A stretch of 64,000 nt of DNA from a virus: IMG/VR virus record IMGVR_UViG_3300027733_000033, one strand, 5' to 3'. The position numbers were made by a program, and so were the translations under genes. The notes below the pieces were generated by a model that saw nothing but the letters and a program-made list of their open reading frames with translations, was not told the origin of the DNA and ran no database searches. How positions within the stretch are numbered: the first letter of the stretch is position 1; every line of letters starts with the position of its first letter. Shown piece by piece: positions 5,288 through 33,200 of the stretch.

Positions 5288-5608
5288 TTACAAATCTACT
5301 GGGATAAGTTTGAATTTAAACTTTTCCTTTGAGTAAATTTTAATTCTTTCATCAAAGTGATTCAACGTATGATTGCGATGACTTTTACCCGTAGATAAAT
5401 TATCAGACAAGTCATAAAGATTACAGACAGTTTTTCCTTCGTTTAGCCGTAAGCCGCGCCCAATACTTTGTAAGACGCGAATCATAGATTTACTAGGAGA
5501 AGCAAATATGATATTATCAATAGAAGGAATTGATACCCCTGTTGATAAAACCCCGTAAGATGCTACGATAATATCGCCTTTGATGTTTTCAATTTTTGTT
5601 GGTTGCAT
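5288..5608 (-). CDS. uvsW: UvsW helicase, C-terminal fragment (motifs V-VI)
   Basis: IIVASYGVLSTGVSI...RVLQSIGRGLR...NHTLNHFDERIKIYSKEKF matches the C-terminus of T4-type UvsW. Confidence 0.9.
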   Translation of the reverse strand: MQPTKIENIKGDIIVASYGVLSTGVSIPSIDNIIFASPSKSMIRVLQSIGRGLRLNEGKTVCNLYDLSDNLSTGKSHRNHTLNHFDERIKIYSKEKFKFKLIPVDL

Positions 5609-5610
5609 AA

Positions 5611-5649
5611 TAATCTCCGTTGAAGTATTACCTTATTTAACGGAGATTA
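5611..5649 (-). promoter_or_regulatory. SD-occluding hairpin with late-promoter TAAATA in the loop (uvsW-C leader)
   Basis: Perfect 11-bp IR TAATCTCCGTT/AACGGAGATTA; GGAG in the 3' arm; TAAATA at 5634-5639. Confidence 0.75.
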
Positions 5650-5802
5650 AGATTTCTTTTTAGTCAGACATTCTTTTCCTGGTCCAATGGGACACTCGTC
5701 AGGATCTTCGAGTGTCTCATCACTTTTCAGTTGAACATCTTCTTGTTTACATTTTTTGGCTTCCGCTAAGGTTAACGCCTTATAATCAAGAAAAGATAAC
5801 AT
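5647..5802 (-). CDS. small putative internal head protein, 51 aa (MLSFLDYKALTLAE-AKKCKQED...), not in ORF track
   Basis: Manual translation; N-terminus parallels the two upstream genes and the T4 capsid-targeting sequence. Confidence 0.65.
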   Translation of the reverse strand: MLSFLDYKALTLAEAKKCKQEDVQLKSDETLEDPDECPIGPGKECLTKKKS

Positions 5803-5804
5803 AA

Positions 5805-6812
5805 CTATTTTTTAGCCTTAGAATCACACGATTCTTCACATTCTTCGTCATCTTCTTCTTCATCTTCATCTTCATCTTCTTCTTCAGCGTCATCTTCCTT
5901 TACAGGTTTCATAGCGCATTTTTCATCTAACTTAGCAAGCAAACTTTCCAAAACTTCGTTTTCTTCTTTGGTTAGTTTACCGGCGGCTGTTTTTTTCTTT
6001 GCACGAAGTAATTTGAAATCTTCAGCATCAAGTTCGCCGCTACCGTTAGCGTCTAATTTTTTATGGTTTGGGTGAGCAAACTTTTCATCAAGGTCTTCTT
6101 TAACAGCTTTGATTTGCTTTTTGCTTGCAGTAATGGCTTCATTATCGCCATGGAAAATTGTATAAGTAGGATCCGTATCACCTTTGAATTTTCTACTAAT
6201 TTCTCCAATATGACCGGTAATTCCTGCACCAGTGCCTTTATGAATAGTTACCTTATTTCCAATTTTATGTGCTTCATCAAGGTCTTCTTTAACATGACCA
6301 CCAGCTGGTTGTCTATAATATTTGACAGTACCTTTTTTGGCATCATGAATTGCAACTAATCCTGGAAGATTATGTTCAACTTGACCTCCGTCGTTTGCAA
6401 CCATTGCACTTGATTTTTTACCTAGACTATCAGTTTTTGATAGAACTTCTCTAAAATTCTTAGTACCATGTTCTTTTTCGTGATCAAGTCTCTTTTTAAG
6501 AATTGCATCATGTTCATCTTTACTAATCTGAACAAACCCCTTTGGTTTGCTAAATGTAGCAGCTTCATTCAGAGAAGATTCATCTAATATAACTTTATCA
6601 TCTATTGCAATAGATTTTAATTTTTTTGCAATAGATTCTGCTGATTTATTGTCGTTATGTTTTTTATAATATTCATAATCGCCAATATCCGCCATTATAT
6701 TGTCATGGTTAGAATAATGTTTTTTAATCGCAAGAAGCTGTTCTTTACTGAGTCCTTCATTCAGAGAAGATTCGGCTAATACCTTTTCTTTGAATTGAGC
6801 AAATGTTAACAT
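5805..6812 (-). CDS. putative internal head polyprotein B (targeting-like N-terminus, LNE/LDE linkers, acidic tail)
   Basis: MLTFAQFKEKVLAE; ESSLNE x2, VKEDLDE x2; KOW-like and EF-hand-like (LDANGSGELDAEDF) segments. Confidence 0.75.
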   Translation of the reverse strand: MLTFAQFKEKVLAESSLNEGLSKEQLLAIKKHYSNHDNIMADIGDYEYYKKHNDNKSAESIAKKLKSIAIDDKVILDESSLNEAATFSKPKGFVQISKDEHDAILKKRLDHEKEHGTKNFREVLSKTDSLGKKSSAMVANDGGQVEHNLPGLVAIHDAKKGTVKYYRQPAGGHVKEDLDEAHKIGNKVTIHKGTGAGITGHIGEISRKFKGDTDPTYTIFHGDNEAITASKKQIKAVKEDLDEKFAHPNHKKLDANGSGELDAEDFKLLRAKKKTAAGKLTKEENEVLESLLAKLDEKCAMKPVKEDDAEEEDEDEDEEEDDEECEESCDSKAKK

Positions 6813-6813
6813 C

Positions 6814-7611
6814 TTAATCCTCTAATTTAGCTAATAGGCTTTCTAAAACTTCGACTTCTTCTTTAGTCAATTTTTTATCAAATTTAGACGGGCGGCTTTT
6901 CAATGCTTGATCTTCTTCCCAGTCTTTTTGGCTTACATAATGTTTAGATTTTTCGTCAGCTTTGCCATTGTATTTTTTGTCAAATTTAGAAGGACGACTT
7001 TTTAAAGCTTGGTCTTCTTCCCAATCTTTTTGGTTAACGTGAACTTCGTCTAAAGATTCTAATGAATATTCTATAACATCATAGCCTTCTTTAACACCTT
7101 TGACTTCAGATACTTTGTATTTGATGCCATAATATTTTTTTTCGCCAGGAGACAATCCTTTGTTTAAACGTTTAGCATGAGCGGCGGCATCTTCTTTGGT
7201 TTCATGAGTTTTAACATGAGTTGGTCCACCACTTCCGATAGAACCACCATGTCTATGAACAGCAAACGCTTCATCTAATTCTTCTTCGTCTAATTTAGCT
7301 AATAGGCTTTCTAAAACTTCAATTTCTTCTTTTTGAAGTTTTTTGTAAGCAACATTCATACCTTTAACTCTTTTGGCTTTAGTTGCTCTAGCTTTTTCTT
7401 CATCAGATTCGCCGCTTTTAATTTTACTAGCATTAAAACTGTTAAGACCTGCTCTTTGTTTTCTAGCAGCTCCTTCAATATCTCTTTGTGCATGAAACGC
7501 GCTGTCCGCAGATTTTTTCATGTAAGAACCAAGCGTACCTTTAGATAATTCGTCTAATTGCTCTACTGATTCTGCTAATACCGCTTCCTTGAATTCATTG
7601 TAAGATAGCAT
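6814..7611 (-). CDS. putative internal head polyprotein A
   Basis: Start MLSYNEFKEAVLAE at 7611 with AAGGA SD; LDE linkers; KEExEVLESLLAKL x2; QKDWEEDQALKSRPSKFDKK x2. Confidence 0.75.
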   Translation of the reverse strand: MLSYNEFKEAVLAESVEQLDELSKGTLGSYMKKSADSAFHAQRDIEGAARKQRAGLNSFNASKIKSGESDEEKARATKAKRVKGMNVAYKKLQKEEIEVLESLLAKLDEEELDEAFAVHRHGGSIGSGGPTHVKTHETKEDAAAHAKRLNKGLSPGEKKYYGIKYKVSEVKGVKEGYDVIEYSLESLDEVHVNQKDWEEDQALKSRPSKFDKKYNGKADEKSKHYVSQKDWEEDQALKSRPSKFDKKLTKEEVEVLESLLAKLED

Positions 7612-8080
7612 CTTTTTTTCCTTTCTTTGGTTTGATGATTTGTGGTTTAACGTATCCCTCAGGGAAATGCGGCATAGGGAAAAACCCTGCTTCAACTATT
7701 TTCTCAAGAGTGATGTTTGGATAATCAGTTTCAAGAATCTGATCTTTTACTAATACTAACACCCGCGCTTCGTCTTTATGCATATTCTCGAGAGTCTGAA
7801 TAAACAAAATTTCTCTACGTGCACTTTTAACAGCGGGATTACAAAATTTCTCTAATCTTTTAGCTTCATAGGTTAAATTCGTTGGAGTCGTACCAATTGG
7901 TGATACGTTCTCTTTATAAGGACATTCCCCGCGTGGAAGTAAGAATAATGCTTTTGGGATATAACCATAGCCAAAAATAAATTTTAAGGCGTTATTATCT
8001 AAGTGTTGCTTCAAGGCTGCTATAGTATCTTTAGCAGAATTAATGTCTTTCAAAATCTCTGGGATAGTTTGTTGGCTCAT
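7595..8080 (-). CDS. conserved T4-like hypothetical protein
   Basis: LPRGECPYK...RREILFIQTLENMHKDEA.VLVLVKD pattern recalled from ORFs next to rnh in T4-like genomes. Confidence 0.65.
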   Translation of the reverse strand: MSQQTIPEILKDINSAKDTIAALKQHLDNNALKFIFGYGYIPKALFLLPRGECPYKENVSPIGTTPTNLTYEAKRLEKFCNPAVKSARREILFIQTLENMHKDEARVLVLVKDQILETDYPNITLEKIVEAGFFPMPHFPEGYVKPQIIKPKKGKKDAILQ

Positions 8081-8106
8081 TTGAATCTCATATAGTTTAA
8101 CATATA

Positions 8107-8115
8107 TTATTTAGT
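8107..8115 (-). promoter_or_regulatory. T4-type late promoter (ACTAAATAA)
   Basis: Same (c/a)TAAATA motif precedes gp13, gp18 and gp22 in this window. Confidence 0.7.
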
Positions 8116-8142
8116 TTATTTCATTTTGCACGACAGCTAAAA

Positions 8143-9042
8143 TCATTTAAAACTTTCGACTTCGTCCAACAGCAATCTGCAGTTATTTTTCATAAAATAC
8201 TCCATAATTCCGTTCAAATCACACTTAGGTTTTAACCCGTTAAACTCATCTAGAATTTTAGTTTCAACCCATTCTGGAATTTTATCAAGGTTAACTAATA
8301 GCTCGTTTCGTTGCCAGTTTCTACGTTCTTCATCGTTACGACAAGCTTCATACCCTAACTCTAGGAATTCGTCTAATCTTTTTCTTGATACCGGCGTTTG
8401 TCTAATGCCATTAACAAAACAGTCGTCACGACTAAAGATATTCGGCACACCATCGCCACCATCACCTCTGACCGTATGTTCTAGCAGTTTAGCCTTAACT
8501 TCTTTTTGTGTAGCAACAATAGCCTTTTTTGTCATATAGCTCCATTGTGATACATTTTTGTATTTTTGAAGTTGAATAAAGTCATTATCCGCTGAAATAA
8601 TCATATACGGCTTAGGGTCGGCGTCAAAAAATGAATCACCGATATCATTAGTTTGGCTCCACTTAGCTAAGACTGAGATGATATCATCCGCTTCAGCTTC
8701 TTGAATCTCGATGACTTTGAAAGGAAATGTTTCTGATAACTCTTTTTTGACAGTTTCCAAAGCCGAAAACAAACCCGCCCAGTTAATATCAGAGTTATCC
8801 CTACTTTTTTTCCTGTTAGCCTTATAGTGTTCAAAAACTTCCTTTCTCCAGTATTTTCTTCCATCGCACGCAATTACAACTTCTCCATATTTTTTACCGT
8901 ATTTTTTCTTGTAAGATAGTATCGTCGACAAAATAGTATGCCGCGCTAAATCCGTAATTTTTTCATCACTCGAATTCTGCAAATCAGATTTAAATGCTAA
9001 AATGTTTGAAATCGCACAACCCGAAAAATCTATAATAATCAT
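8143..9042 (-). CDS. rnh: RNase H / 5'-3' exonuclease
   Basis: IIIDFS, YWRK..F.HYKANRKKSR, EADDII, ISADNDFIQLQ, GDGGDGVPN motifs. Confidence 0.93.
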   Translation of the reverse strand: MIIIDFSGCAISNILAFKSDLQNSSDEKITDLARHTILSTILSYKKKYGKKYGEVVIACDGRKYWRKEVFEHYKANRKKSRDNSDINWAGLFSALETVKKELSETFPFKVIEIQEAEADDIISVLAKWSQTNDIGDSFFDADPKPYMIISADNDFIQLQKYKNVSQWSYMTKKAIVATQKEVKAKLLEHTVRGDGGDGVPNIFSRDDCFVNGIRQTPVSRKRLDEFLELGYEACRNDEERRNWQRNELLVNLDKIPEWVETKILDEFNGLKPKCDLNGIMEYFMKNNCRLLLDEVESFK

Positions 9043-9045
9043 TTT

Positions 9046-9318
9046 TTAATCCTTATCTGATTCGTATGGGTCAAAAGTTCCCATGAGACAATTGAGCTTA
9101 AACTCTTCTACCATCCAAAGTGCTGACTTAGCATCAACCCCGTTAGACGATATCAACATTTGCCCGCCCTTAGTATAAACTATAGATAAAACGTGCTCAA
9201 TATCATCAGACATTTCGTTCATGTATTGGTAATAATCTTCAAGCATTTCTTTATTAGTTTCTTCTAATTTTTCTTCAGAAGATTTTGTTTTGCCTTTCAA
9301 TACAATTAAGTCACTCAT
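9046..9318 (-). CDS. hypothetical protein
   Basis: ORF track; AGGA SD. Confidence 0.6.
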   Translation of the reverse strand: MSDLIVLKGKTKSSEEKLEETNKEMLEDYYQYMNEMSDDIEHVLSIVYTKGGQMLISSNGVDAKSALWMVEEFKLNCLMGTFDPYESDKD

Positions 9319-9333
9319 TATAAATTCCTTAGG

Positions 9334-9732
9334 TTAAGTGTTTGGGTCAATACCTAGCATAGCTTTCGCTCTATCTACCGCGCCGGTTTCAGTTAAGTAC
9401 ATAAGTCCTAATTTAAGTAGCATAGGTGCTCCCGACCAATCAGAATAACAACATGCATAAAAGTCTTCTTCACTAAAGCATGGGTAATAATACACGGCGT
9501 TCACGTCATCAGGTATCTCGTACAAACCGTCAGCAACCTTAAATCCATTCACATCTATAACCTTAGATGCTATTCTATAGGGTTGATTAGGTATTTCAAA
9601 TGAAGGCATAAAACTACATTTTATCCAAGATTCTTCTGTTACATCATAATATTCTAGGATATCCCAAGGCGTTTCGCTAACCCCTGCTCTTTTTGCTATT
9701 GCTGAAATAAATTCAAAATAAGGCGATTTCAT
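9334..9732 (-). CDS. hypothetical protein
   Basis: ORF track; likely start MKSPY. Confidence 0.6.
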   Translation of the reverse strand: MKSPYFEFISAIAKRAGVSETPWDILEYYDVTEESWIKCSFMPSFEIPNQPYRIASKVIDVNGFKVADGLYEIPDDVNAVYYYPCFSEEDFYACCYSDWSGAPMLLKLGLMYLTETGAVDRAKAMLGIDPNT

Positions 9733-9733
9733 A

Positions 9734-10669
9734 TTATACCCCAAAACTGGCTAATGACGCGGTTGATTTAACTTTAACGGTTCTTGGTTTTCTAGTCTTT
9801 TTAGCCGGCGCAGGTGCTACAACAGGCTTAACCTTTGGTGTTCTAGGCTTTCTAGTTTTAACCGGTTCAGGCGCAGGTTTAGGCGTTTTGGCTACCTTTA
9901 CAACTTTTACAGGTTTAACCGGCGCGACTTTAGGTTTGACCGTTCTAGTTTTTCTAGGTTTAGGTGCAGTCATAACGGCACAAGAATTAATCATTTTATC
10001 CAGTAAGTTTGAATAAGATTTTAGTTTAGCCTTACCAACCTTTGCGTAAGATTCATTCAGTTGTTCGCATTTACCGGCTAATGCTTCTTTAATTTCAACA
10101 CTCAATTTTTGTAGATAAACAGATAATCCTTTAATAACCGCAGGAGATTTTCCTACCAAATTATATTTAAACTGGTATGCAGTTGGATAACCGCTTCTAA
10201 TAAACTCATCCAACTCATCCTCAAATATAGAAATCTCAGAAGCAACTTTTGCTTTGATATTTTCTTGAACGTTTTGGGTAACGCCTACCGCCGCATGAGT
10301 TTCAACCCGTTCAATAGGAACATACTGTAGCAATTCCTCAGTTTTGGTTTTAATGTAACTGAGTTCTCTATCTTCAAGAATAGCGCCGTTAGATAAAATT
10401 CTAGACAACGCGCCTATAGTATGAAACTCGTAATCTGGAATATCATCTAATTTAGATTTTAATGATTTATCGTTCTTAGCAATATACTCAACAGCCCACT
10501 TTTTACACTCTTTATTTGAGTGGTATGCGTTATAAAAATTCAGCGCTTGGATTAGCGTCATTTTGTAGTTTAGAATATTGATTTGTGGCTCACCAACACC
10601 CTTAACAGATTTGATAATTTTTTCAACAAGTTCTTTGTTTTTCTCGGTTTTTGATTTTTTAATAGCCAT
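9734..10669 (-). CDS. hypothetical protein with Lys/Pro-rich (histone H1-like) C-terminal tail
   Basis: ALNFYN and EQLNESY motifs; KPRKTRTVKPK-type repeats; own sigma70-like promoter at ~10706-10741. Confidence 0.7.
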   Translation of the reverse strand: MAIKKSKTEKNKELVEKIIKSVKGVGEPQINILNYKMTLIQALNFYNAYHSNKECKKWAVEYIAKNDKSLKSKLDDIPDYEFHTIGALSRILSNGAILEDRELSYIKTKTEELLQYVPIERVETHAAVGVTQNVQENIKAKVASEISIFEDELDEFIRSGYPTAYQFKYNLVGKSPAVIKGLSVYLQKLSVEIKEALAGKCEQLNESYAKVGKAKLKSYSNLLDKMINSCAVMTAPKPRKTRTVKPKVAPVKPVKVVKVAKTPKPAPEPVKTRKPRTPKVKPVVAPAPAKKTRKPRTVKVKSTASLASFGV

Positions 10670-10751
10670 AATATTTACACCGGAGTTATAGTTAACTAGA
10701 ACAACTATTATACTATATTTTTATGAAAAGTAAAGCTTTATTTTAGGTATG

Positions 10752-10777
10752 CAAAAGCCGACTATTAAGCCGGCTTT
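10752..10777 (-). terminator. rho-independent terminator
   Basis: AAAGCCGG/TCGGCTTTT hairpin of the recurring type. Confidence 0.7.
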
Positions 10778-11347
10778 GACGTTAGATGTGTGTATAATTA
10801 TGTTTACTATACGACGCGACATAATTCACATTGTTTATCCAAAATGGATCAGTGTTTTGAATATCTACTGCTAACCGGTTAGCTATAGCGGCAGTATGTA
10901 TCACTTTATGAATATCAAACTTAATATCAGCATCTTTGATTAGATCGTATTTCATATGAACGCTTTGTAAGTTATCTGCTTCAAGATGCCTCAGTGAATT
11001 TATAGTGGCGTTAATTAGGGTCGGATTTGATACTGGAGATATAACCATATTGTCCTTTTTTTGTCGTGTACACAGATTTGTAAAAAGTGATAAAATCTAA
11101 TATGAACATAAAAATAATCATACTCAATATCAAAAATGATTTAAGCCGTTGCATCATGTTTTTCTAATTGGTAACACAGTTTCTCCTGTTCTGTTTGCGT
11201 ATAGATACCGCCTAACTTTTTACATGTTTCTTCAAAATGCTCATAATCATAATACAATGTTCCTAATGCTATGACAACATATAGCATTACAGCAATACTA
11301 ATTATCCAAACAATTTGTAATTTAGTTGTGCTTTCAAATTTCATAAT

Positions 11348-11554
11348 TTATTTTCCTCTGGCTGCTAACATAGCATCAGCAAGACCGTAAGCCAATTTTG
11401 CGATGTAGTCGTGGTTTTGATTTAAGTTTTCGTATCTGGCAATGATAGTGGGAAGCGCTTTAGCCGCGAAATAATCGCGCAAGTTCATCCCGTCACTATT
11501 TTCGCTAGGAAACGCCTTTTCGCGATACGGTGTATTGTAATTGTAGTCATCCAT
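11348..11554 (-). CDS. conserved small phage protein (LRDYFAAKA family)
   Basis: GMNLRDYFAAKAL...AYGLADAMLAAR motif. Confidence 0.75.
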   Translation of the reverse strand: MDDYNYNTPYREKAFPSENSDGMNLRDYFAAKALPTIIARYENLNQNHDYIAKLAYGLADAMLAARGK

Positions 11555-12353
11555 AATTATTTAACCTCTTATGATAGTAAGGAATTGGTTCTAAAAGCTG
11601 GGCGAGTAAACAGTGTATCCTCAGGAATTAATTTACTTTTATACAATCTGAACCTATCACAAATAAACTCTTCATCAGTGTCCCATATTCCATAACAATA
11701 AGTAGGTTCTGATACAAAGTAATAAAGTTCAAACAAATCGGTTCCAGTTTTTGGCTCTAACGCTAGGTATCTAAACTTAGGATCAATGTCTTTCCAGATT
11801 AATTTTTCATCAATCTTATCAAAATCAAATATCTTTTGTGTAAGGTTATTGTTAAGAACCTCATTAAATAAATCATTCAATTCCGACCAAGAAATAATAG
11901 CCGTTATTTTATTAAGAATCTCATCTACTCTATCTTTATTCATCTTTCACCATTCCAAGAGTTATTTCACGCCCAATAATAGCCTTTTCAATTTTAAGAT
12001 TAAGTATTCGTTCACGCGCCCGTTCAACTTCTTCTTCCTTCCACTTTAGCCGCGTCGTTTCAGTAGCCAGCTGATTACAAATAGAATCAAACTTCTCTCT
12101 AATATCATCCATATTTGAATACCCTGTTAGCCGGTTTATGTTTAATTAATCTAATAAGGACAGACTCATCAACTTTCATATCCTCGTTCATAAAATCAAA
12201 TAATCTGACTTTGAATTCTCTTAAGGTAATACCGCCTATAAAATCCTCAAAATACAGTTCACATAATTCCGCTAAGTTGATGTTTGGATCAGTTTCATCA
12301 ACGTCTTTTAAGAAAAACAGTTTCTTTCTTAGTTCTACTACAGTCAGCATAAT

Positions 12354-12692
12354 TTAATCCCATAAGTTGTAAAAATACTTAGCAAGTAAATCTATCCCAG
12401 CTTTAATTTTTGTATCCTTGACATCATCGCCTAAGTACATTTGATGTGTAGGGTATTCTTTAAACGCATATATCATGGTATCAAGCACATCATCCCAGCG
12501 CTTTCTATTTTCTTCTTCAGTAAATTCTTCAGAAGCAAACGCGCTTGGGTAGCCTGTACTTGTTTCCTTATACTTAACTAGCATAGGATGAATAATTCTG
12601 GATAAGGTAATATCCATATCCCAAACGTCAGAATCATCAATTACGATAGTTTCTTCAGGCGGTATAACGGTGTTATCAATTAATACTTTCAT
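12354..12692 (-). CDS. conserved phage hypothetical protein
   Basis: D.WDMD.TLSRII.PML..YK...GYP...WD.VLD.MI.AF...G..L..KYF.NLWD pattern. Confidence 0.7.
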   Translation of the reverse strand: MKVLIDNTVIPPEETIVIDDSDVWDMDITLSRIIHPMLVKYKETSTGYPSAFASEEFTEEENRKRWDDVLDTMIYAFKEYPTHQMYLGDDVKDTKIKAGIDLLAKYFYNLWD

Positions 12693-12707
12693 ATTGGTAC
12701 CTATAGA

Positions 12708-12787
12708 ATATTTTTAAGCGCTTAACCTCAATTCACGCCCGACTAAGCTATTATACGCGTGCAGGAGTAAAAAGTAAAGTTTTATTT
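12708..12787 (-). repeat. class-2 promoter element (AAATAAAACTTTACT..TATAAT, then AGCYTAGTCGGGCGTGAATTGAGGTTAAGCGCTTAAAAATAT)
   Basis: Four near-identical copies in the window. Confidence 0.85.
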
Positions 12788-13261
12788 TACATCAAATGTT
12801 TCTTTAATTATATCGCGAATCCGTTCTAATGCATCATAAGTCAAATCAGCGGCTAACTCACCAACTGGACTGTTACCTACAGAAATAGGATATTGCTCAA
12901 TGATATTTAAACATTCTTGAATAACTAATCGAGCAAAAAGTTCTTCATCAAATTTTTTACCTTGACCATAAGAATTGCCATACGCATCCATTTGATTATA
13001 ATATCGCATGGCTTTATTTTTAAATTCATTAATTTTATCGTTCATAAGCCTACCTTTGGAAAATAATGTTTTTTGACCCAGTTAATACAATTTTGGTCGC
13101 ATTCTAAATCAATTGGTTCATGTTCTTTACCGTTGCGATTTTTGTACCATGTTTCAATATTATAGTACCAGAATCTTTTATCAGTTTCATTGAAAGTATG
13201 GGTTGACTCTATGATAGTAAGGATAGCGCCGGTTAATTTCAAATCTAACATTTTATTCTCC

Positions 13262-13672
13262 TTAAATTATTCCAGCAGGGTATTGTTCAACTCGGTAAAT
13301 TTCAGCTTTGTTTTCATCAACAAACGAACGCAATTTGTCAAAAAACTTATCCATTTTGTTCAATAAATCTTTTTCATTTTTAGCGGTAAATTTTCTGAAG
13401 GGTAATTTAACGGTATTCATCGCATAATATGAATCTTTTTCAGGGTTAAGCGATAAGCCGCCCGCGATTAATTTTACTGTAAATTGTTCATCGTTTTGTT
13501 GAATTGATAGCACAGTGTGCATAGGATCGTTTTCACGAATTTTATTAGCACACAATTCAGTTTTACCGATTAAACCCAAACGGATAAAACTATAATTTTT
13601 GCCCAACGAAGCGCTGTTTTCAGCGAAATAGCCATTAGGGAATTTGTTTAAGAATAATTGTTCAATTGTCAT
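13262..13672 (-). CDS. hypothetical early protein
   Basis: ORF track; SD-led start MTIEQ, in frame with the cassette ATG at 13711. Confidence 0.7.
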   Translation of the reverse strand: MTIEQLFLNKFPNGYFAENSASLGKNYSFIRLGLIGKTELCANKIRENDPMHTVLSIQQNDEQFTVKLIAGGLSLNPEKDSYYAMNTVKLPFRKFTAKNEKDLLNKMDKFFDKLRSFVDENKAEIYRVEQYPAGII

Positions 13673-24834: not shown

Positions 24835-24877
24835 TCTCCTTTATAAAAAGCAAGAATTGTGTTCCTAATGGCAACAC
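24835..24877 (-). promoter_or_regulatory. ROSE-like RNA thermometer hairpins in the hsp20 leader
   Basis: TCTTGCT pairs with AGGAGA (SD) with a bulged G; upstream GTGTTGCC/GGAACAC hairpin. Confidence 0.65.
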
Positions 24878-24997
24878 AGGTTAAAAGTGGCTCAACTTAT
24901 CGTATTGAGGATGGTAGTTTCTATTGCTACACGGTCAGTTCCGTTGACGTAGAACTGTCCTACAAACCTATTTAGTAACGTTTTACCGCCTACTATT

Positions 24998-25167
24998 TTA
25001 GCAATTCCATTTCTTTAAGGCTAATGCCTTTCTTGTTGGTTTGCCATTTTTATCTTTCATTGGTCCGGATACGCCACTCATTCTGGCACAAAAGCTTTTG
25101 CGTCTTTTTGCTGCTTATCTCTCCAGCATTTAAAACTAAGAGGGTTCTTTTTTTCGTTTAATTCCAT
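24998..25167 (-). pseudogene. broken DUF6321-like head-protein gene
   Basis: AAKRRKSFCARMSG...PTRKALALKKWNC* is out of frame with the SD-led start MELNEKK and preceded by TAA. Confidence 0.6.
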
Positions 25168-25238
25168 AAATTTTCCTTTAATCATCTATAGAATTATTTA
25201 GGGTATGATAGCGAAAAGTAAGAACCAACGCAGGTATT

Positions 25239-25312
25239 TGGAGCCGGTACACAGAATCAAACTGTGATCTAAAGATTACAAGTCAATTGTATTATCATTA
25301 TACTATACCGGC
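25239..25312 (-). tRNA. degenerate tRNA-Thr(TGT)
   Basis: Acceptor GCCGGTA/TACCGGC plus CCA; two anticodon-stem mismatches, no D-loop GG, T-loop TTTGATT. Confidence 0.6.
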
Positions 25313-25318
25313 GTTATT

Positions 25319-25393
25319 TGGCTCCATCTCACGAAATCGAATCGCTCTCACACGGATTAACAGTTCGGTCGCACACCTTGTGCGTTAGATGGA
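25319..25393 (-). tRNA. atypical tRNA-Asn(GTT)
   Basis: TCCATCT/AGATGGA-G-CCA, CTGTTAA loop, TTCGA; imperfect anticodon and T stems. Confidence 0.55.
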
Positions 25394-25399
25394 ATAATT

Positions 25400-25475
25400 T
25401 GGTCTCCCTGCGTCGATTTGAACGACGGACAATGCGCCCCAAACGCATCATGTTACCAGACTACACTACAGAGAG
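25400..25475 (-). tRNA. tRNA-Pro(TGG)
   Basis: ATGCG-TTTGGGG-CGCAT anticodon arm; CCA end. Confidence 0.88.
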
Positions 25476-25480
25476 AATAT

Positions 25481-25587
25481 TCAGTTTGGTTATTTCAGTT
25501 TTTAACGTGGGACTAACCTATCACCACAATACAACATCAGTTTGGTTATTTCGGTTTTTAACGCGGAGCTAACCTACTGCCGCAACA
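25481..25587 (-). ncRNA. tandem ~50-nt repeat predicted to form pseudoknots
   Basis: Copies at 25481-25529 and 25537-25587; GCGG/CCGC vs GTGG/CCAC compensatory change. Confidence 0.55.
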
Positions 25588-25604
25588 TTATTTAATATAA
25601 AAAT

Positions 25605-25680
25605 TGGAGCCACTGAAAGGAATCGAACCCTCAACCCCCTGATTACAAGTCAGGTGCTCTACCAATTGAGCTACAGTGGC
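25605..25680 (-). tRNA. tRNA-Thr(TGT)
   Basis: Canonical cloverleaf, CCTGA-CTTGTAA-TCAGG, TTCGA, CCA. Confidence 0.93.
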
Positions 25681-25694
25681 GTTTAAAACTTATT

Positions 25695-25771
25695 AGGGGT
25701 GACTAGTGGGACTCGAACCCACAAAATCTCGAATCACAATCGAGGACGTCTACCAATTCCGTCATAGTCAC
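25695..25771 (-). tRNA. tRNA-His(GTG)
   Basis: CTCGA-TTGTGAT-TCGAG; C discriminator; ends CCT rather than CCA. Confidence 0.88.
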
Positions 25772-25791
25772 ACCTAATAAGTCTTTGTAAT

Positions 25792-25875
25792 TGGTGGAGA
25801 TCCCTGGATTCGAACCAGGTGCCCTTTGGGCACGGATTTACAGTCCGCTGCAGTCGCCTATGCCGCTCGACCTCC
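25792..25875 (-). tRNA. tRNA-Tyr(GTA)
   Basis: GCGGA-CTGTAAA-TCCGT, long variable arm, ACCA. Confidence 0.9.
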
Positions 25876-25913
25876 AAATATTTTTTAAAAAAGTAAAGGT
25901 TTAAAACTATTTG

Positions 25914-25985
25914 TGCCCTCGCCAGGATTCGAACCTGGAACCAAATTCTTATGAGGAATACGCTCTGCCGTTGAGCTAAAAGGGC
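25914..25985 (-). tRNA. tRNA with CAT anticodon (Met or Ile2)
   Basis: CTCATAA loop, G1-C72, TTCGAA; no encoded CCA. Confidence 0.85.
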
Positions 25986-25995
25986 AAATTTTTTA

Positions 25996-26083
25996 GATAG
26001 TCACCGGTACTGAACCTCCGGCATTACTGTTCTATTGGGCAGTCAACCTATTCTCTTGCGTATCAACCTACGCATTAACTATC
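25996..26083 (-). ncRNA. candidate structured small RNA in the tRNA operon
   Basis: Closing stem GATAGT/ACTATC; hairpins TGCGTA/TACGCA and CCGG/CCGG. Confidence 0.55.
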
Positions 26084-26323
26084 AAGTCATAAGTATTTAA
26101 CGGAGTTACATGTGCTGCCTAGTATGACCACAAACCCGACTAGAATGTAATACTTATGCTTCATAATGTTTGTCTTTCCAAACTGTCAGTTCTTTTTTGT
26201 GCTTTAAGGCTTTCCGCAGAACATACATTTGCCACTTTTAATTGGTAGTGCTTCCAATTTTGATAGTAACCCCGATCCAAACCGAATAGGCTACCAAAAC
26301 TCTTTAACTCAAACTACAGGTAT

Positions 26324-26360
26324 ATTATAATTTATTTACACAATAAAGTAAAGTTTTATT
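26324..26360 (-). promoter_or_regulatory. tRNA-cluster promoter: sigma70-like with TAAATA in the spacer
   Basis: TTTACT-TTATTGTGTAAATAAAT-TATAAT. Confidence 0.7.
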
Positions 26361-26605
26361 TAAAGAGCAGCAATCGCCGCTACTTCACCCACTTCTGTCA
26401 AAACCGCGATAGTTTCCGCGCTACCAGCAACTTCAGCTACAGTACCAGCGGCGGCAACAGTTCCTTCTACAGCGGCTGTACCAGTTGATACAATAGCATC
26501 ATAAGCAGTTTTAGCCGCTACACCGGTAGCAATATCAACCACGCCATTACCAACTGCCTCAGCTTCATGTTTAACAGCGTGACCGATTTTAGAAAAAATA
26601 TTCAT
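26360..26605 (-). CDS. Ala/Val-rich hypothetical protein
   Basis: ORF track, in operon context. Confidence 0.6.
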   Translation of the reverse strand: MNIFSKIGHAVKHEAEAVGNGVVDIATGVAAKTAYDAIVSTGTAAVEGTVAAAGTVAEVAGSAETIAVLTEVGEVAAIAAL

Positions 26606-26609
26606 GATG

Positions 26610-26963
26610 TTATCTCAAATTGTTTAGCTTATACAAAGTTTCGTTGTTCAAAGATTGTAAAGTATCTATAATGTTCTGAATTTCAGTTTCAGAACCACAA
26701 TCAGCACGATTAGCATCTACCCAAGAACGTAAGGTAGAAACCAATTGGACTGCATCACTAGGGTTATTAACAACAGGATAATCATTAATAATCCCATTTC
26801 TCCCTTGATGATTTTCCGCAAGCGAATCCGCAATGTCAATAACTGCATTATAGAACTCCTCCAGCGCCTTGTGCTGAGAAAAACTTGTTGTTTGTAAATG
26901 TGCGATATGTGCTTTATTTCTAGCATCAAACAATAAAGCAATTAGCTGTGGCATTTTATTCAT
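26610..26963 (-). CDS. ferritin/Dps-like four-helix protein (DUF5856-like)
   Basis: AHIAHLQT.SFSQHKALEEFY...D.LAE..QG...QNIID...TLYKL. Confidence 0.8.
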   Translation of the reverse strand: MNKMPQLIALLFDARNKAHIAHLQTTSFSQHKALEEFYNAVIDIADSLAENHQGRNGIINDYPVVNNPSDAVQLVSTLRSWVDANRADCGSETEIQNIIDTLQSLNNETLYKLNNLR

Positions 26964-27185
26964 TGTAATATATATTCCATTTTATTTATTCTTCAGTTGC
27001 TTCAGCTTGTTCTTCTTGAGCCGCCGCTAATTCTGCGGCTTCTACTTGAGGACGACCCTGATTTTGAATTTTAGTGATAATTTCACTAACATCACGATAA
27101 GGTTCTTCAGAAAGCATTTCAAGGATAAAATTCACTTCTTCAACAGGTAATTCTAATGTAATCAGCATATAGTCATTCCAAAAGG

Positions 27186-27575
27186 TTAAGATTTGTTGTT
27201 TCCCAAATTGTATTTTGGGCATAGTTCCCAGTCAGATTTCTCTTGAAAAGAAAGAATCTTTATGGTATTTAGTGAGCAAGTTTCAAGGTCAACTTTATTG
27301 ACAATTTCTAGTAAACCCCAATCGTTCAATAATTTGGCAATTGTGTTCCTGCGTTTAATATCATCATCTGATATAGAGGTAGGCTTATTATCAAGTTCAA
27401 ACAATTGTTTAAAATGCACCAGATAATATTTACCCTGTTTATGTAATATATGAGCAGTCTGGTAAAGTTTCTTTTCTTGTTTAGAAGCAATACCGATACG
27501 GCTTAATGTTTCACGAACCTTTAAAAAATCATCAGGCTGTTTTAATGTGATTTCTAATAAATCATACTTTTCCAT
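27186..27575 (-). CDS. regA: translational repressor RegA
   Basis: DDFLKVRETLSRIGIAS, LYQTAHILHKQGKYYLVHFK, RRNTIAKLL.DWGL. Confidence 0.95.
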   Translation of the reverse strand: MEKYDLLEITLKQPDDFLKVRETLSRIGIASKQEKKLYQTAHILHKQGKYYLVHFKQLFELDNKPTSISDDDIKRRNTIAKLLNDWGLLEIVNKVDLETCSLNTIKILSFQEKSDWELCPKYNLGNNKS

Positions 27576-27960
27576 GTTTTTGTTTCCCACCCGTACCCAT
27601 TTGTTCTCTGACAGTATCAATTTGACTTTCAGTTAATAAGGTAAGAGCCAACGCTCCTTTTTCTTTGCTGTAATTAAAATAATCGCACACCAAATTCAAA
27701 TCATCTGAACTATCGGCTTTCTTGACCCATTTAGAAAATCGTTTTTTCTTTTTAATAGACGCCAGTAAAAAATCATTTGCCATATCTTTTGGTAGATTAG
27801 GATAACGGTTCATTTCGTTAGCCTGTAACACCGTGTCGACATAATAAGATAAACCCCTGTTAATGATAAAAGGTGTATATTCTTTAACAGATTGTTCATC
27901 AACAAGTAAATTTTCTTTCGTGAAGTTTATAGCTGTTAAGTAATCAAACAATTTTGCCAT
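27562..27960 (-). CDS. 62: clamp loader small subunit
   Basis: FDYL.AIN, Y.PFIINRGLS, ANEMN, KKRFSKW; position after gp44. Confidence 0.93.
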   Translation of the reverse strand: MAKLFDYLTAINFTKENLLVDEQSVKEYTPFIINRGLSYYVDTVLQANEMNRYPNLPKDMANDFLLASIKKKKRFSKWVKKADSSDDLNLVCDYFNYSKEKGALALTLLTESQIDTVREQMGTGGKQKHGKV

Positions 27961-28371
27961 AGTGTATCCCATAATATAAATGTGACATCATTATTATTTA
28001 TAAGTTTTTATTCTTGGTCAATAATATAGATAATGTAATCTGGAAACGAATCTTTCAAATACTGAATTAAAGTGTTATAATCATCGCTTTTACCCAGATA
28101 CTTTGAAGTCTTATTTTCATAGGCGAAAAATAGGTCGTCATGTTTTTCTATTTTAACGTAAATAGATTTCGCACCATCAAACTTAAGAGTGCGCCCGTAT
28201 AACATACCTAGAAAAAAAGAAGCCGCCATTAAACAAACAGTAGAGATTAATTGAATCATAATTTATGTAATGTCTCAAAAGGATGGAAAATAAATTTAAT
28301 TATTTGTTCAGCTGTGTACCATATACCGGTTAAAACGTTTATGATACAGCTAATAATTACAGCTAATGTAT

Positions 28372-29322
28372 TCATTTGAAATTTACACTGGACATAATTT
28401 CAGTAAGCGCCGCCATAATATTTAACTCTTGATCGGCAACAAAAGCAGATTTATATGAATAGTCTGCCATAATTAAAATCAACTGAGGAACAGAATTAGG
28501 CTCAACCAAAGTCGATGAATAATCATAAAAATGTCTGAATAACTCTACGCAATCAACATCATTCATACCTACCCATTTTCTAACTTCAGTAAAGTTTTTT
28601 TCTTTTATATAGCCGATTAATGCTTTATAAGAATCATCACTAAAGTTAGACAATATACCAGAATCAATTTTACCTGATACAGAATAACGCTGTAATTCAT
28701 TAAGAACTCTACGGTAGTCTGGGAAGAATTTAGTAATAACCTCAGCTACCACCTTTGGGTCGTATTCAACTTTTTCTTCAACAAGAATAGCACATGCTCT
28801 TTTAAAGAATTTAGCCGCTAACTCTTGTTTCTCACTTTTTTCAATAGTGAAGTTCAAAGCCGTACATCTTGAATGAATAGGTGCAATCAACTTTTGAGGA
28901 AAATTACAAGTAAGAATAAATCTACAATTAGCACTGAAAGTTTCAATAAAACCACGCAATGCTGGCTGAAAAGAATTAGCGTTTAAGCCGTCAGCTTCAT
29001 CAAGAATAACAACTTTAGTGCCACCGCCAAATGATACAGTAGAAGCAAATGATTGGATTTTACTTCTAAGAACATCAATACCAGACTCCATAGATGCGTT
29101 AATGAATAAAACGTCAGCATCTAATTCATTACAAAGCGCAAATGCTGCTGTAGTTTTACCAGTACCCGCGCCGCCTGAAAATAACATATTAGGAATCTCG
29201 CCTTGTTTTACGATATCTTTTAATGTTTGTTTCATTCGTTCAGGTAAAATACAATCCTCAATTTTAGATGGACGGTATTTTTCAACGTACAAAAATTCTT
29301 CTGGTTTTGCTATCAAACTCAT
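28372..29322 (-). CDS. 44: clamp loader large subunit
   Basis: EKYRP, GGAGTGKTT, ILDEAD, HSRC, FPDYRR motifs. Confidence 0.96.
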   Translation of the reverse strand: MSLIAKPEEFLYVEKYRPSKIEDCILPERMKQTLKDIVKQGEIPNMLFSGGAGTGKTTAAFALCNELDADVLFINASMESGIDVLRSKIQSFASTVSFGGGTKVVILDEADGLNANSFQPALRGFIETFSANCRFILTCNFPQKLIAPIHSRCTALNFTIEKSEKQELAAKFFKRACAILVEEKVEYDPKVVAEVITKFFPDYRRVLNELQRYSVSGKIDSGILSNFSDDSYKALIGYIKEKNFTEVRKWVGMNDVDCVELFRHFYDYSSTLVEPNSVPQLILIMADYSYKSAFVADQELNIMAALTEIMSSVNFK

Positions 29323-29392
29323 AAGTGTATCCTCAATAATATCATAATAAACAATTGAAGCTGATTATCGGCTCAGCTTCAAGCCGGCTATC

Positions 29393-30052
29393 TTACTCGA
29401 ATGAAGAATCTGACTCAACGGCAAGGAAATACACGGTATCTTTGGTTTTATGTTTAAATCTTGAAATCTTTTTAGTCGAGATAGATACGGTATAATCGCC
29501 GTGTACTAATTTTAACAAACCAATTTTTAGGTAAACTTTAAATGTGGTAGAAGTGGAACCAACTTCAACTTCATACACGTTAGACGAATCAACCTTTTTA
29601 TCGCCGACTCGGATAACAATCTTATTGCCATCGCCAATTAAGGCTAAGTCTTGCGCTTTCAATACCGATGCTGTACGATTAATCATATCAAGCATACTGT
29701 CGGTTAACTCAAACTCAATATCTGCATCAGGAAATTTAATTTCTTTAGTCGGTACGGTTAAAACGTTTTCAGCCGCTGAGTAATATTTAATGGAGTTATT
29801 GCCCTCAGCAATAGTGACATATTTATCGTTAAATGTCAACTCAGGATCGTTAAACAAAGAAACAGCACCCAAGAATTCTGAAATATCGTAGATGCCAAAA
29901 GTGGTATCAAATGATTCAGCAATAGCACTATCAGCCATAATGTTTTTTTGTACTGAAACCGTAGAAAGTTTGTTTCCAGGTTTTAGCATCACATTAGGAT
30001 TAATAGACGCAAAGTTTTTTAGAATTGCTTGGGTTTCTTTTGACAATTTCAT
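29393..30052 (-). CDS. 45: sliding clamp
   Basis: ILKNFASIN, FGIYD..EFL, C-terminal LAVESDS; position before gp44. Confidence 0.95.
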   Translation of the reverse strand: MKLSKETQAILKNFASINPNVMLKPGNKLSTVSVQKNIMADSAIAESFDTTFGIYDISEFLGAVSLFNDPELTFNDKYVTIAEGNNSIKYYSAAENVLTVPTKEIKFPDADIEFELTDSMLDMINRTASVLKAQDLALIGDGNKIVIRVGDKKVDSSNVYEVEVGSTSTTFKVYLKIGLLKLVHGDYTVSISTKKISRFKHKTKDTVYFLAVESDSSFE

Positions 30053-30977
30053 AATGTTCCTTAATAATGTAAATAAAAATATATAGTAAATGATTTTGCG
30101 TCAAAAGTAAAATTCACTTTTGAATACACTGTAATGTATACGAACCTGAAATATCGCTGAACATGCTAGCAAGAATAGTCTTTTCAATTTTTAAGGCGTT
30201 TTCACATGTTAATGCGTTATTTAATTCAGTTGACGTAATTTTTAAGTCATAGCCGCCGTCTATATGAGTCATAGTTGTAATCAATAATATAAATGTTTTC
30301 AAAATTTCACCTTGAAGTCCAGTTTGTTGCGGGTTAAAAACTCAATCGCTTTTTCGTATGTAGCATCATCTTCAGCATTAACTTCAAACAGGTCGTCGTA
30401 AACGATACCTTCTAAGTTATCAGAAACATCACCCTCAACACGTAAAACAATTTTATAGGGTTGACGAATAGCTTCTAGCGTAAGGTTTTTGTTGTTATTT
30501 ATAACAGAAAGCGTAATAAGGCTCATATTATCTCCCCATTGGATTAGTGTTAACAACACGGATTCTATCGCCGTAATGGATTTTTCTATATGTATAGAAT
30601 TTATCGCGTTTTATGTCAATCCTAACTTTACGGTTCAAATGCTCTCTTGATTTACGCATTGGAGTAATAATCGAAAACAATTCGTCTTTCTCGCTAATCA
30701 TGGTATCACCTCAAAAATTAATAATAAATTTAAACTACAATAGCAATTATACTCTGTTTTTATAAAAAGTAAAGCTTTTTTTAATAATCTGCGCTAATAT
30801 AAACCCGTTCACTTTGTTCTGACGTTTCAACATGTAAACAGTATCCAACAGGAATAATCATATCGTCAATCAAAACATCGTCACCTCTACGGTAAACCAT
30901 AGACCCATGTTTACAGTGGTCGTGAATTAAATCTGATAAAGCTTTGAAGTTTTTACCGGTATATCTTACTGAGGATT

Positions 30978-31340
30978 TCATTCAATACCCCGTTCATCAA
31001 ACTCATACAAAAACATTAAATTACATGCGGCGTGGAGTAAATGGGATTTGCCTGTTTCGTCATCATTTTTATCACCTTTAAGGTAATCGTACACATGTCG
31101 TAATAACGCATCAGTATAACGTTTTCTAGCATCTGGTACGATTAACCAATTATCTTCATCGTACTTTTCAGCGCCGCTTGTTAGTATAGAACCAACACCC
31201 TCTATGAAATATGGACTTAACAATCTGTATTTAACCTTTCCAGTATCAAATTTTCTTCCAACTGAGGATAGGTCTTTTGTTTCTGTTTCATTTTTAGAAT
31301 TACTGTAATTAGCGAATGCCACGTCTTTTTCTCTCTTCAA
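30978..31340 (-). CDS. dATP/dGTP diphosphohydrolase N-terminal-domain (DUF5664-like) protein
   Basis: KFDTGK, GAEKY..DNW, ALLRH, D.ETG.SHL.HAACNLMFL. Confidence 0.85.
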   Translation of the reverse strand: MKREKDVAFANYSNSKNETETKDLSSVGRKFDTGKVKYRLLSPYFIEGVGSILTSGAEKYDEDNWLIVPDARKRYTDALLRHVYDYLKGDKNDDETGKSHLLHAACNLMFLYEFDERGIE

Positions 31341-31845
31341 TTATATCATCTAACGAAATAGGGTAAAAATCAGTTCTTTCAACACTGACGTTCATATACC
31401 TATTATCTGGAGTTCCGTCCGGTAAAAGTACAACTTCATTATGTAAATGTCCATGAATTTGAAACCCCCACCGCCCTAAACAATCTGGGTGGACCGGAAT
31501 ATGACCAAACAACATATTATCAATAACATGATATGCCCTGATGTCTTTAAAGTAAGGTAGATATTTGTCCAATTTGAAAATATCATGATTCCCTTTAATC
31601 AACCTCAAATCTTTACAGTTCAGCCGTTCTAACATAGGGAGCGCTCTTAAATTTAAAGCAACATCACCTAAAATGTAACATTTATCTTCTGGTTTAACCC
31701 TTTCGTTGAAACGCTCAACTAAAACTTCGTCCATTTCTTCGATTGAATCCCATGGTCTAAGTTTACTCCCATCATAATTTAAAAATTTACACATTCCGTG
31801 ATGCCCAAAGTGCAAATCCGAAGTAAGCCAGATGTTCATTTTCAC
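31309..31845 (-). CDS. metallophosphoesterase
   Basis: SDLHFGH, LGD, GNHD, HIP, HGHLH, NVSVE motifs. Confidence 0.9.
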   Translation of the reverse strand: MKMNIWLTSDLHFGHHGMCKFLNYDGSKLRPWDSIEEMDEVLVERFNERVKPEDKCYILGDVALNLRALPMLERLNCKDLRLIKGNHDIFKLDKYLPYFKDIRAYHVIDNMLFGHIPVHPDCLGRWGFQIHGHLHNEVVLLPDGTPDNRYMNVSVERTDFYPISLDDIIEERKRRGIR

Positions 31846-33200
31846 TCCTTATGTAGTTTCTTAGATTTAATCCAAGAATTATCAATATCATTATCTAATG
31901 TCAAATCTTTACCCTTTATAATAGCGCCGCCGGTTAATACTACATCTTCATTATCGGCAATCACTAGATATGCCTCACCAAAGTAAACCTTTCTAGACTT
32001 CTTAGTTGAATTCAGCAAATTACGAATATCATTCCGTTCAGAGGTATCAACCTCCCCAGAAACATAATGTATCGTTCTGTCAGAACCTTTATCTTTTAAC
32101 AGCTCTAATATTGCCTTTCCGTGTGATATATAGTTAAACAGAATCAAAGTAACGCCGTCTAAAGACAATGTCAAATTTGAGATAAATTTGTTTCGCTTAC
32201 TGTCTAACGTCAAAAACTTAATTTCTTTTTGGTATTCTATTTTTTTACATAAGTCTTTAGATTCTTTAGGGTGATTTAATATAAGGCAATTAATGTTTAA
32301 TGGAGTGACTTCTTTATTATCCATCAACTCTTTTGTTGTTATTACCTTATAAACTTCACCAAATAAGCCGGTTAATTGTAGTTCTGATATATTTTTACCA
32401 TTAAGCGTTCCTGTTGTACCAAATCTGTATTTTACATCTGGCATATTATTCAGCAAAGTTGATGCTGATTTAGCCGCGTATGTATGACACTCATCTCCGA
32501 TAACAACATCTATATTTTCAAGGTCTTTAGGCTTTAATTTGTACAAACTTTGCCATGTTGAAATAGCACAGTTATGTTTAAATTCTCTAGTAAACCCTGA
32601 ATAGATTTTGTTACAGTTAGCATCTACACTCCACCCATTATGGCTTGAGTAATCTTGAAAATCAGAATACATTTGCTCAACTAAGGTTGTTGATGGAACG
32701 ATAATCAAACATCTTTTACCGGCGTTAATATACCAACGAATTAAACTGTAAATCATTAAAGACTTACCAGATGATGTTGGTGACACAAGAATACATCTAT
32801 TAAGATTAAGCGCCTTATGTACCGCGTCAAGTTGGTAATGTCTAAAATCAATAGGTTTGCTTCTTGCGTGTGGCTTTAATGCAGAACAAAAATTGTTTAC
32901 CAATTCAAGTGGATAATTGTTTTGTTCTTTTACATCATTTTTATATGCGATTTTGTATTCATTAATATCTGCGAATTTTTCAACATAACCTATTAAACCG
33001 GTCTGTAACAGCTTTTTATGAATATCGTATAACCGTGCTTTTCCATCCCAAATTTTGTTACGGAAAAGTGGCATAAATTTATATCCAGGAACAAAAAATG
33101 AGAAGTATTCATACAATTCAGATTCTATACCAAAATCATCAGCTGTTATCTTAATAAAGGCTTCATTCAGTTTTTCAACATAAAGCGTGCCGTTCGACAT
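31842..33200 (-). CDS. uvsW: UvsW helicase, N-terminal fragment (motifs Q-IV) with a 54-aa non-helicase tail
   Basis: FSFFVPGYKFMP..WDGK, PTSSGKS, STWQS, DECH, GTTGT, SGEVD..ER; motifs V-VI absent. Confidence 0.92.
   Translation of the reverse strand: MSNGTLYVEKLNEAFIKITADDFGIESELYEYFSFFVPGYKFMPLFRNKIWDGKARLYDIHKKLLQTGLIGYVEKFADINEYKIAYKNDVKEQNNYPLELVNNFCSALKPHARSKPIDFRHYQLDAVHKALNLNRCILVSPTSSGKSLMIYSLIRWYINAGKRCLIIVPSTTLVEQMYSDFQDYSSHNGWSVDANCNKIYSGFTREFKHNCAISTWQSLYKLKPKDLENIDVVIGDECHTYAAKSASTLLNNMPDVKYRFGTTGTLNGKNISELQLTGLFGEVYKVITTKELMDNKEVTPLNINCLILNHPKESKDLCKKIEYQKEIKFLTLDSKRNKFISNLTLSLDGVTLILFNYISHGKAILELLKDKGSDRTIHYVSGEVDTSERNDIRNLLNSTKKSRKVYFGEAYLVIADNEDVVLTGGAIIKGKDLTLDNDIDNSWIKSKKLHKE

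Follow-up and report, generated by a model that had tools for sequence, protein, structure and literature searches.

When mobE inserted into the NrdA gene of Aeromonas phage Aeh1, the enzyme came to be made as two chains, NrdA-a and NrdA-b, and the tails derived from the insertion are essential for its activity (PMC3045599; reviewed in PMC2988022). A related history is recorded in the T4-type topoisomerase subunits gp39 and gp60, for which, after MobA invasion, first the endonuclease and then the bypass were lost and the split and its extensions always stayed (bioRxiv 10.1101/2022.08.31.505936; PMC2988022). The order of half-gene, endonuclease gene and half-gene is also found in fractured genes with split inteins, described in a paper whose text makes no mention of UvsW (Dassa et al., 2009, PMC2677866), and in Dickeya phage LIMEstone1 a putative uvsW intron, I-LimI, with a Mob-like endonuclease has been reported (Adriaenssens et al., 2012, PMC3296691). 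Here we describe a uvsW helicase gene that is carried as two unlinked halves in IMG/VR record IMGVR_UViG_3300027733_000033, a 64,000-nucleotide stretch of DNA (hereafter the window) from an uncultured freshwater T4-like myophage with a GC content of 35% and nearly all of its genes on the minus strand; the stretch is found in lake metagenomes of 17 studies. We consider it likely that UvsW is here a non-covalent heterodimer whose halves were split by an HNH endonuclease cassette and are now held together by a tail that serves as a clasp.

Aeh1 NrdA is, by analogy, the closest tested precedent for the role of this tail. In both cases a conserved enzyme gene appears to have been severed by a Mob-type HNH gene that left each product with a unique tail, C-terminal on one and N-terminal on the other; in Aeh1 the chains come together with no splicing of RNA or protein, as is predicted for UvsW. 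The Aeh1 halves still flank mobE, whereas here the endonuclease is gone and the halves lie 26 kb apart; furthermore, the enzyme cut in the present case is a helicase, within a RecA domain, its tail is longer and intein-like, and it is known from sequence and models. With gp39/gp60 of T4 the locus shares a mobile cassette, conserved C- and N-terminal extensions and stepwise decay; as in T4, moreover, the second gene of some of the window's relatives is interrupted near its start by a stop codon and a short coding gap. In T4, however, the halves are adjacent rather than unlinked, and the gap is 50 nt long with matched take-off and landing codons, compared with 5-6 nt in the uvsW relatives and none in the window. 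The split-intein genes share the half-gene, endonuclease gene, half-gene layout of the window's relatives and the probably Hint-like fold of its tail, although the lack of splicing residues and the coverage of only about half a Hint domain mean that, unlike in those genes, no trans-splicing is expected. For LIMEstone1 the insertion site and the kind of Mob-like endonuclease are identical, and the related phage phiDP23.1 has a homologous tail and a C-terminal half beginning MKPTK; that element was published as an intron, yet its flanking pieces are separate open reading frames (ORFs) with cassette extensions, and there the halves are adjacent. Outside phages, the archaeon Nanoarchaeum equitans encodes halves of single enzymes at unlinked loci and assembles them in trans, as proposed for uvsW here, but does so in a cellular genome, where some of the splits use split inteins or are tRNA halves, and with no link to a homing-endonuclease cassette. 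No description of phage genes-in-pieces whose halves have drifted apart was found in the papers searched. What is new here is the endonuclease-free, unlinked stage of a known arrangement, notable also for its intein-like tail.

One helicase divided between two genes

The larger gene (31842..33200, minus strand; 452 aa), termed here the N-half, encodes the UvsW N-terminal domain, the first RecA domain (RecA1) and the start of the second (RecA2) through motif IV, followed by the 54-aa tail. It matches UvsW_N (PF21241), ResIII (PF04851) and DEAD (PF00270) in Pfam, it aligns with residues 23-397 of the T4 UvsW structure 2oca (E 1e-68), and a Foldseek search with its AlphaFold2 (AF2) model returns 2oca first (E 3e-30) as well as 1rif (TM 0.88); residues 399-452 have no UvsW counterpart. 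The smaller gene (5288..5608, minus strand; 106 aa), the C-half, opens with a new 6-residue N-terminus, MQPTKI, and continues through RecA2 motifs V (ASYGVLSTG) and VI (QSIGRGLR) to the UvsW C-terminus. It matches Helicase_C, belongs to phrog_17901, a family of stand-alone C-halves, and aligns with 2oca residues 391-500 (E 1e-16). Taken together, the two alignments to 2oca leave no part of UvsW missing and place the break within RecA2, between motifs IV and V, with the motif IV region in the N-half. All of this bears out an initial annotation of the stretch, made from the letters alone, which had placed the two ORFs at these positions, with motifs V-VI and the normal C-terminus in the smaller one, a tail on the larger one and essentially nothing lost between them. 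The features of a UvsW-type helicase are therefore spread across two ORFs rather than carried by one continuous polypeptide, the form taken by UvsW in more than 100 full-length relatives (~493 aa each).

From the stop of the N-half to the start of the C-half, on the same strand, is 26,233 bp. The 26.2-kb block in between (5609..31841, minus strand) contains, by PHROG assignment, core T4-type genes and no mobile element: phosphoesterase, MazG-like enzyme, gp45, gp44, PhoH, gp43 DNA polymerase, exonucleases and an RNase H-like gene. Since these are ordinary core genes, the block is not an inserted element. Within the window the N-half adjoins the phosphoesterase gene and the C-half comes after a 51-aa ORF; neither half has a homing endonuclease gene beside it, and no direct or inverted repeats were found at the two break points.

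The window is metagenomic, and the best-matching sequencing run may be its own source, so that a chimeric contig could in principle have parted a single gene. Evidence from other assemblies rejects such an artefact, whose probability we regard as negligible. Upstream of the C-half, three IMG/VR contigs (L001-L003) stay colinear with the window through the junction, L002 and L003 being 97% identical to it there, and three more (L053-L055) are colinear across the tail into the following genes, with identities across the N-half end of 98.5% for L053 and 87% for L054/L055; the six come from four samples. Contigs of two further lake studies span 31554-32149 and 31731-32322, and the metagenome contigs at the N-half break show neither an alternative joint nor a loose end. 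Furthermore, conservation of the tail and of the new N-terminus extends to orthologues with as little as 44% identity. Misassembly, the first concern of the initial annotation, can therefore be set aside, as the junctions recur in the IMG/VR contigs and in other lake metagenomes. In the course of this comparison the C-half itself was found to differ from its L002 counterpart (L002:10001-10318) at 46/318 nt, within surroundings of 8.8 kb that are 97% identical, a pattern that looks like allelic exchange confined to this short stretch.

Purifying selection acts on both halves and on the tail, with no sign of the decay that the initial annotation had suggested checking for: the ratio of nonsynonymous to synonymous substitution rates (dN/dS) is 0.031 for the N-half core (against L054/L055), 0.132 for the tail and 0.049 for the C-half, in comparisons at dS about 0.8-0.9. 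Among N-half orthologues, Walker A, DExH and motif III are invariant, as are S140-S147 and D236/E237/H239, and 13 stand-alone C-halves (54-95% identity), all of which start with MKPxK or a near variant, show no variation in motifs V and VI. In four N-half orthologues (P0123, P0124, P0125 and P0127) Walker A is interrupted by a mini-intein of 129-145 aa, with borders reading SPTS/CLDP at its front and HHN/SGKS at its end (N-halves at L049:6001-7749, L061:1005-2810 and L062:7740-9479); the window copy has none. The presence of this element in Walker A suggests that these N-half genes are still in use.

The multimer structure prediction that had also been called for points to a physical complex. 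Modelled together, N-half residues 286-452 and the C-half score 0.76, as against 0.01 for the best of 3 controls; such a score is reached by 58/80 solved complexes and by 2/110 mismatched pairs. Across runs the contacts agree by at least 91% and the partner has a predicted local distance difference test value (pLDDT) of at least 78. The modelled RecA2 sheet is the canonical one, built by pairing of C-half strands 13-15 and 31-34 with N-half residues 350-354 and 377-378, and the interface includes tail residues 401-408, 411, 413, 423 and 433-444 and by C-half residues 1-21. This moderately favours binding of the two chains. In the AF2 model of the N-half alone, the N-domain, RecA1 and the tail are folded and the RecA2 part is strandless (pLDDT 52-83), and this poor folding of RecA2 fits a need for the partner.

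It is conceivable that the halves are no longer partners at all, the N-half having acquired a new, ATPase-independent role or the C-half being a leftover or serving some other protein. The unlinked positions of the genes, their perhaps different expression, and the folded N-domain, RecA1 and tail of the lone N-half would all suit such a history. Against it stand the invariance of motifs V and VI in a C-half with a dN/dS of 0.05, the completion in the model of a RecA2 sheet that has no strands by itself, the co-occurrence of the halves in all three long contigs checked (see below) and the retention of Walker A and DExH by the N-half. In superfamily 2 (SF2) helicases, Walker A and DExH are useless without the arginine of motif VI. 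We therefore regard a lost partnership as improbable.

The two-gene UvsW is real and very probably functional: reproduced junctions, purifying selection, retained motifs, co-occurrence and the complex model make the two-chain SF2 helicase proposed in the initial annotation the best-supported reading. In such a heterodimer, chain 1 (452 aa) would contribute everything from the N-terminal domain through RecA1, with its Walker A and DExH motifs, to the first strands and helices of RecA2. Chain 2 (106 aa) would add the other RecA2 strands, which bear motifs V and VI, and the C-terminal end, so that one RecA2 sheet is rebuilt from both chains. The docking clasp would be the tail of chain 1, probably helped by the short new N-terminus of chain 2.

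Split forms in relatives and the origin of the break

The same break, which the initial annotation had proposed to look for, is present in relatives: N-half orthologues with identities of 44-100% have the tail and lack a Helicase_C domain. In a tree built without the trait columns, the seven window-type N-halves are grouped in one clade (99% support). Dispersal is not peculiar to the window. In a 249-kb contig the N-half lies at 19069-20418 on the minus strand and the C-half at 87878-88195 on the plus strand, ~67 kb away; in a 235-kb contig they lie at 65709-67457 (plus) and 151671-151988 (minus), ~84 kb apart. Both halves are thus present together in 3/3 long contigs of the clade that were checked, and in L047, L049, L061 and L062 no C-half is found within ~6-10 kb downstream of the N-half. 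Sequence comparison indicates that dispersed halves are common to the whole clade, a point missed initially. In the window and in the 249-kb and 235-kb relatives alike, the C-half has the RNase H-like gene upstream of it and dCMP deaminase, metallophosphoesterase and MazG-like genes downstream; this shared neighbourhood implies that the relocation is older than the divergence of the window and these relatives.

Could the intact gene instead be restored at the DNA level in some genomes? A resolvase-family serine recombinase gene (33500-34168), 300 bp upstream of the N-half, offers a candidate enzyme for such rejoining. Break-point repeats are absent, however, the 26-kb block that would have to be removed contains gp43, gp44 and gp45, and the metagenome runs compared show no contig joint or loose end at the break; close relatives have the same split without the recombinase gene, which differs between them as a 662-bp presence/absence, and in the relatives with opposite-strand halves 67-84 kb separate the two. 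We consider DNA-level rejoining highly improbable. The recombinase gene itself (222 aa) corresponds to a clean indel at 33514-34175, missing in L053-L055 and in the contigs of two other lake studies and present in both forms in one run, and looks like a small mobile gene.

Other relatives point to how the split that would give rise to the UvsW heterodimer came about. An N-half with tail, an HNH endonuclease gene and a C-half beginning MKPxK are adjacent and in this order in L059, L063, L064, L065 and the cultured Dickeya phage phiDP23.1 (L066; Ackermannviridae; KM209320.1 68882-71280). The endonuclease between the halves has 304 aa in L059 and 223-229 aa in L063, L064 and L065, where it matches phrog_655 with E down to 8e-53; together, the endonucleases of L059, L063-L065 and L066 match phrog_655, phrog_12434 and phrog_10820. 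In phiDP23.1 the N part of UvsW ends in a homologous tail, and the HNH gene next to it is followed by a homologous C-half of 110 aa beginning MKPTK (phrog_17901, E 7e-76); in L051 (LR796208.1) and L056-L058 the halves are separated by endonuclease remnants alone. Both extensions, the tail and the MKPxK start, are conserved, and neither occurs in intact UvsW. Because the same tailed N-half and MKPxK C-half flank an HNH gene in these relatives, the tail is best read as an extension brought by the cassette. The comparison therefore points to the insertion of a Mob-like HNH cassette, an origin that the initial annotation had not considered; its statement that fractured phage genes are usually adjacent or flank one endonuclease gene was right, as the relatives show just that layout and the window appears to be a later stage.

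These forms can be arranged in a series, in an order that we infer: intact uvsW, uvsW cut by an HNH cassette that added the extensions, loss of the endonuclease, and unlinking of the halves. In the lineage of the window, a Mob-like HNH cassette would have entered uvsW between motifs IV and V, bringing both extensions; its endonuclease gene would later have been lost in the window clade, and a rearrangement would have placed the C-half between the RNase H-like and dCMP deaminase genes. With 3 changes on the tree, the approximately unbiased test (p-AU 0.146) neither shows nor excludes that all ten split forms share one origin.

In several of the relatives with adjacent halves the C-half ORF is broken directly past the codon for the motif V tyrosine (L051:11554-11880, L059:2389-2710, L056:11586-11906, and also L057, L058 and L060). 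The gap is 5 nt in L051 and L059 (TAT TGA AT GGT) and 6 nt in L056-L058 (TAT TAG AAC GGA), and omitting the 5 or 6 nt gives back the motif ASYGT(L/F)STG. Beyond the gap L051 and L059 differ at 55 nt but at only 5 aa, so this part is still under selection, and the gap could be crossed by a short ribosomal hop, a -1 frameshift, read-through or re-initiation at TTG. The arrangement recalls the MobA-linked bypass in T4 gene 60; the C-half of the window is free of gaps.

The intein-like tail

The tail (residues 399-452; 31845..32006, minus strand) had been called unrelated in the initial annotation. It is indeed without a UvsW counterpart, but it is not junk, for it is conserved in every split orthologue examined. 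Modelled alone with AF2 it forms a small beta domain of four strands and a short helix (pLDDT 88.7), and its elements are identical within the model of the whole N-half. In an exhaustive structural comparison the model most resembles the Hint fold: 29/31 chains at Z >= 2 are inteins or Hint domains (Z 2.1-4.5), among them PI-PfuI, Npu DnaE, VidaL, gp41-1, NrdJ-1 and hedgehog. The tail matches the second half of the N-terminal lobe and so covers about half a Hint domain. Foldseek places the VidaL intein at probability 0.60 and gives nothing at E <= 0.001, and hhalign aligns the tail with positions 39-86 of the Walker A mini-intein at a probability of 10%. As the Z values are low, the likeness relies on a near-exclusive list of matches and on no single score. 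No Pfam family was found in the tail. Two other candidates were set aside: a decayed copy of the lost C-terminal region, hinted at by MAFFT, was rejected at an hhalign probability of 0.2% with no homology to the C-half, and a match to KtrA in a profile search of PDB sequences was judged spurious, with two stretches each at E 5.

An active, atypical split intein, in which the tail and the N-terminus of the C-half would trans-splice the two halves covalently, is a further reading that the near-exclusive intein matches invite, as does the ancestral endonuclease-flanking layout, which is that of the fractured genes with split inteins (PMC2677866). The residues that splicing requires, however, are absent. 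In the tail alignment neither a Cys/Ser at the start nor the block B TxxH is conserved, the position of the block B His being taken by G, A, S or T; F, L, D and W are the only invariant residues. Within the ~6 extra residues at the N-terminus of the C-half, an Asn (or Gln/Asp) followed by a Cys/Ser/Thr nucleophile is not conserved either, and only about half a Hint domain is there to act. Trans-splicing is thus very improbable in our view, and, given the missing splicing residues, we read the tail as a fragment of an intein, probably catalytically dead, that would now help to hold the UvsW heterodimer together without covalent joining.

Elsewhere in the window, the two Portal_T4 stretches of the portal (gp20) gene (40848-43655, 935 aa) are separated by an in-frame intein that contains an HNH endonuclease domain, as they are in LR796208.1.

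Expression of the halves and implications

Each half has its own Shine-Dalgarno sequence (GAGGA for the N-half and GGAG for the C-half), and the C-half is followed by an intrinsic terminator (5264..5284, minus strand), an 8-bp GC-rich stem and then a T run, both in agreement with what had first been annotated. In addition, the GGAG ribosome-binding site of the C-half is buried in an 11-bp hairpin (5611..5649, minus strand; fold -14.2 kcal/mol, z -3.85): GGAG sits in the 3' arm, the word TTAAATA (5634-5640) runs from the 5' arm into the beginning of the loop, and L002 carries one compensatory change, from U-A to C-G. In T4, late transcripts of genes e and soc that start inside a hairpin free the ribosome-binding site. 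By analogy, TTAAATA resembles a late promoter, and late transcripts would expose the ribosome-binding site of the C-half; with the site in a hairpin that holds such a promoter-like word, the C-half is probably translated only from late transcripts. In a scan for the late-promoter word TATAAATA, matches were fewer than in shuffled sequence. The single metatranscriptome run compared covers small parts of the stretch, with nothing usable for the N-half, and another run, X2, matches just a short repeat. A late unit that ends at the 5264 terminator may have the C-half as its final cistron. The genes directly upstream of it (5647-8078) encode T4 capsid-targeting-like N-terminal peptides, MLTFAQFKEKVLAE and MLSFLDYKALTLAE, and internal repeats, and CTAAATA precedes the ATG at 8078. 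A different signal, an early-promoter-like repeat of ~88 nt with TTTAC-type and TATAAT boxes, occurs in 7 copies on the minus strand (5158-5245, 13672-13759, 19290-19377, 20059-20146, 21905-21992, 22450-22537 and 30698-30785), several of which adjoin terminator hairpins.

Several points weigh against a two-chain UvsW with the history and parts proposed above. The binding and activity of the two chains are predicted, and the complex model may pass through its likeness to the single-chain T4 UvsW structure 2oca. The intein likeness comes from low Z values, a 57-residue predicted model and an hhalign probability of 10%, and the late-promoter reading of TTAAATA is purely one of analogy. The comparison of trees leaves one origin for all split forms neither shown nor rejected, and an intact second uvsW may formally exist elsewhere in the genome, beyond the window.

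More tentatively, and we think this rather unlikely as a whole, the dead half-intein could be a portable, high-affinity clasp that permits the halves to be unlinked, and the late C-half a timed activating subunit that switches on UvsW. If true, synthesis of the late C-half would activate UvsW and so help to bring on the change from origin-dependent to recombination-dependent replication.

For annotation, the ~105-aa "helicase" ORFs of phrog_17901 and the ~450-aa UvsW proteins without motifs V and VI would be partners, not fragments. Likewise, the uvsW "intron" of LIMEstone-like phages merits re-examination, as the separate ORFs with extensions found there suggest genes-in-pieces instead of an intron. 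The 54-aa docking module is a possible non-splicing dimerisation tag for protein engineers, and in the two-gene UvsW there is a natural experiment on whether an SF2 motor works when its second RecA domain is built from two chains. In the phages of this clade, the locus would represent the end stage of an invasion by a homing endonuclease, in which the selfish gene is gone, the host enzyme is permanently in two pieces, and the pieces are dispersed.

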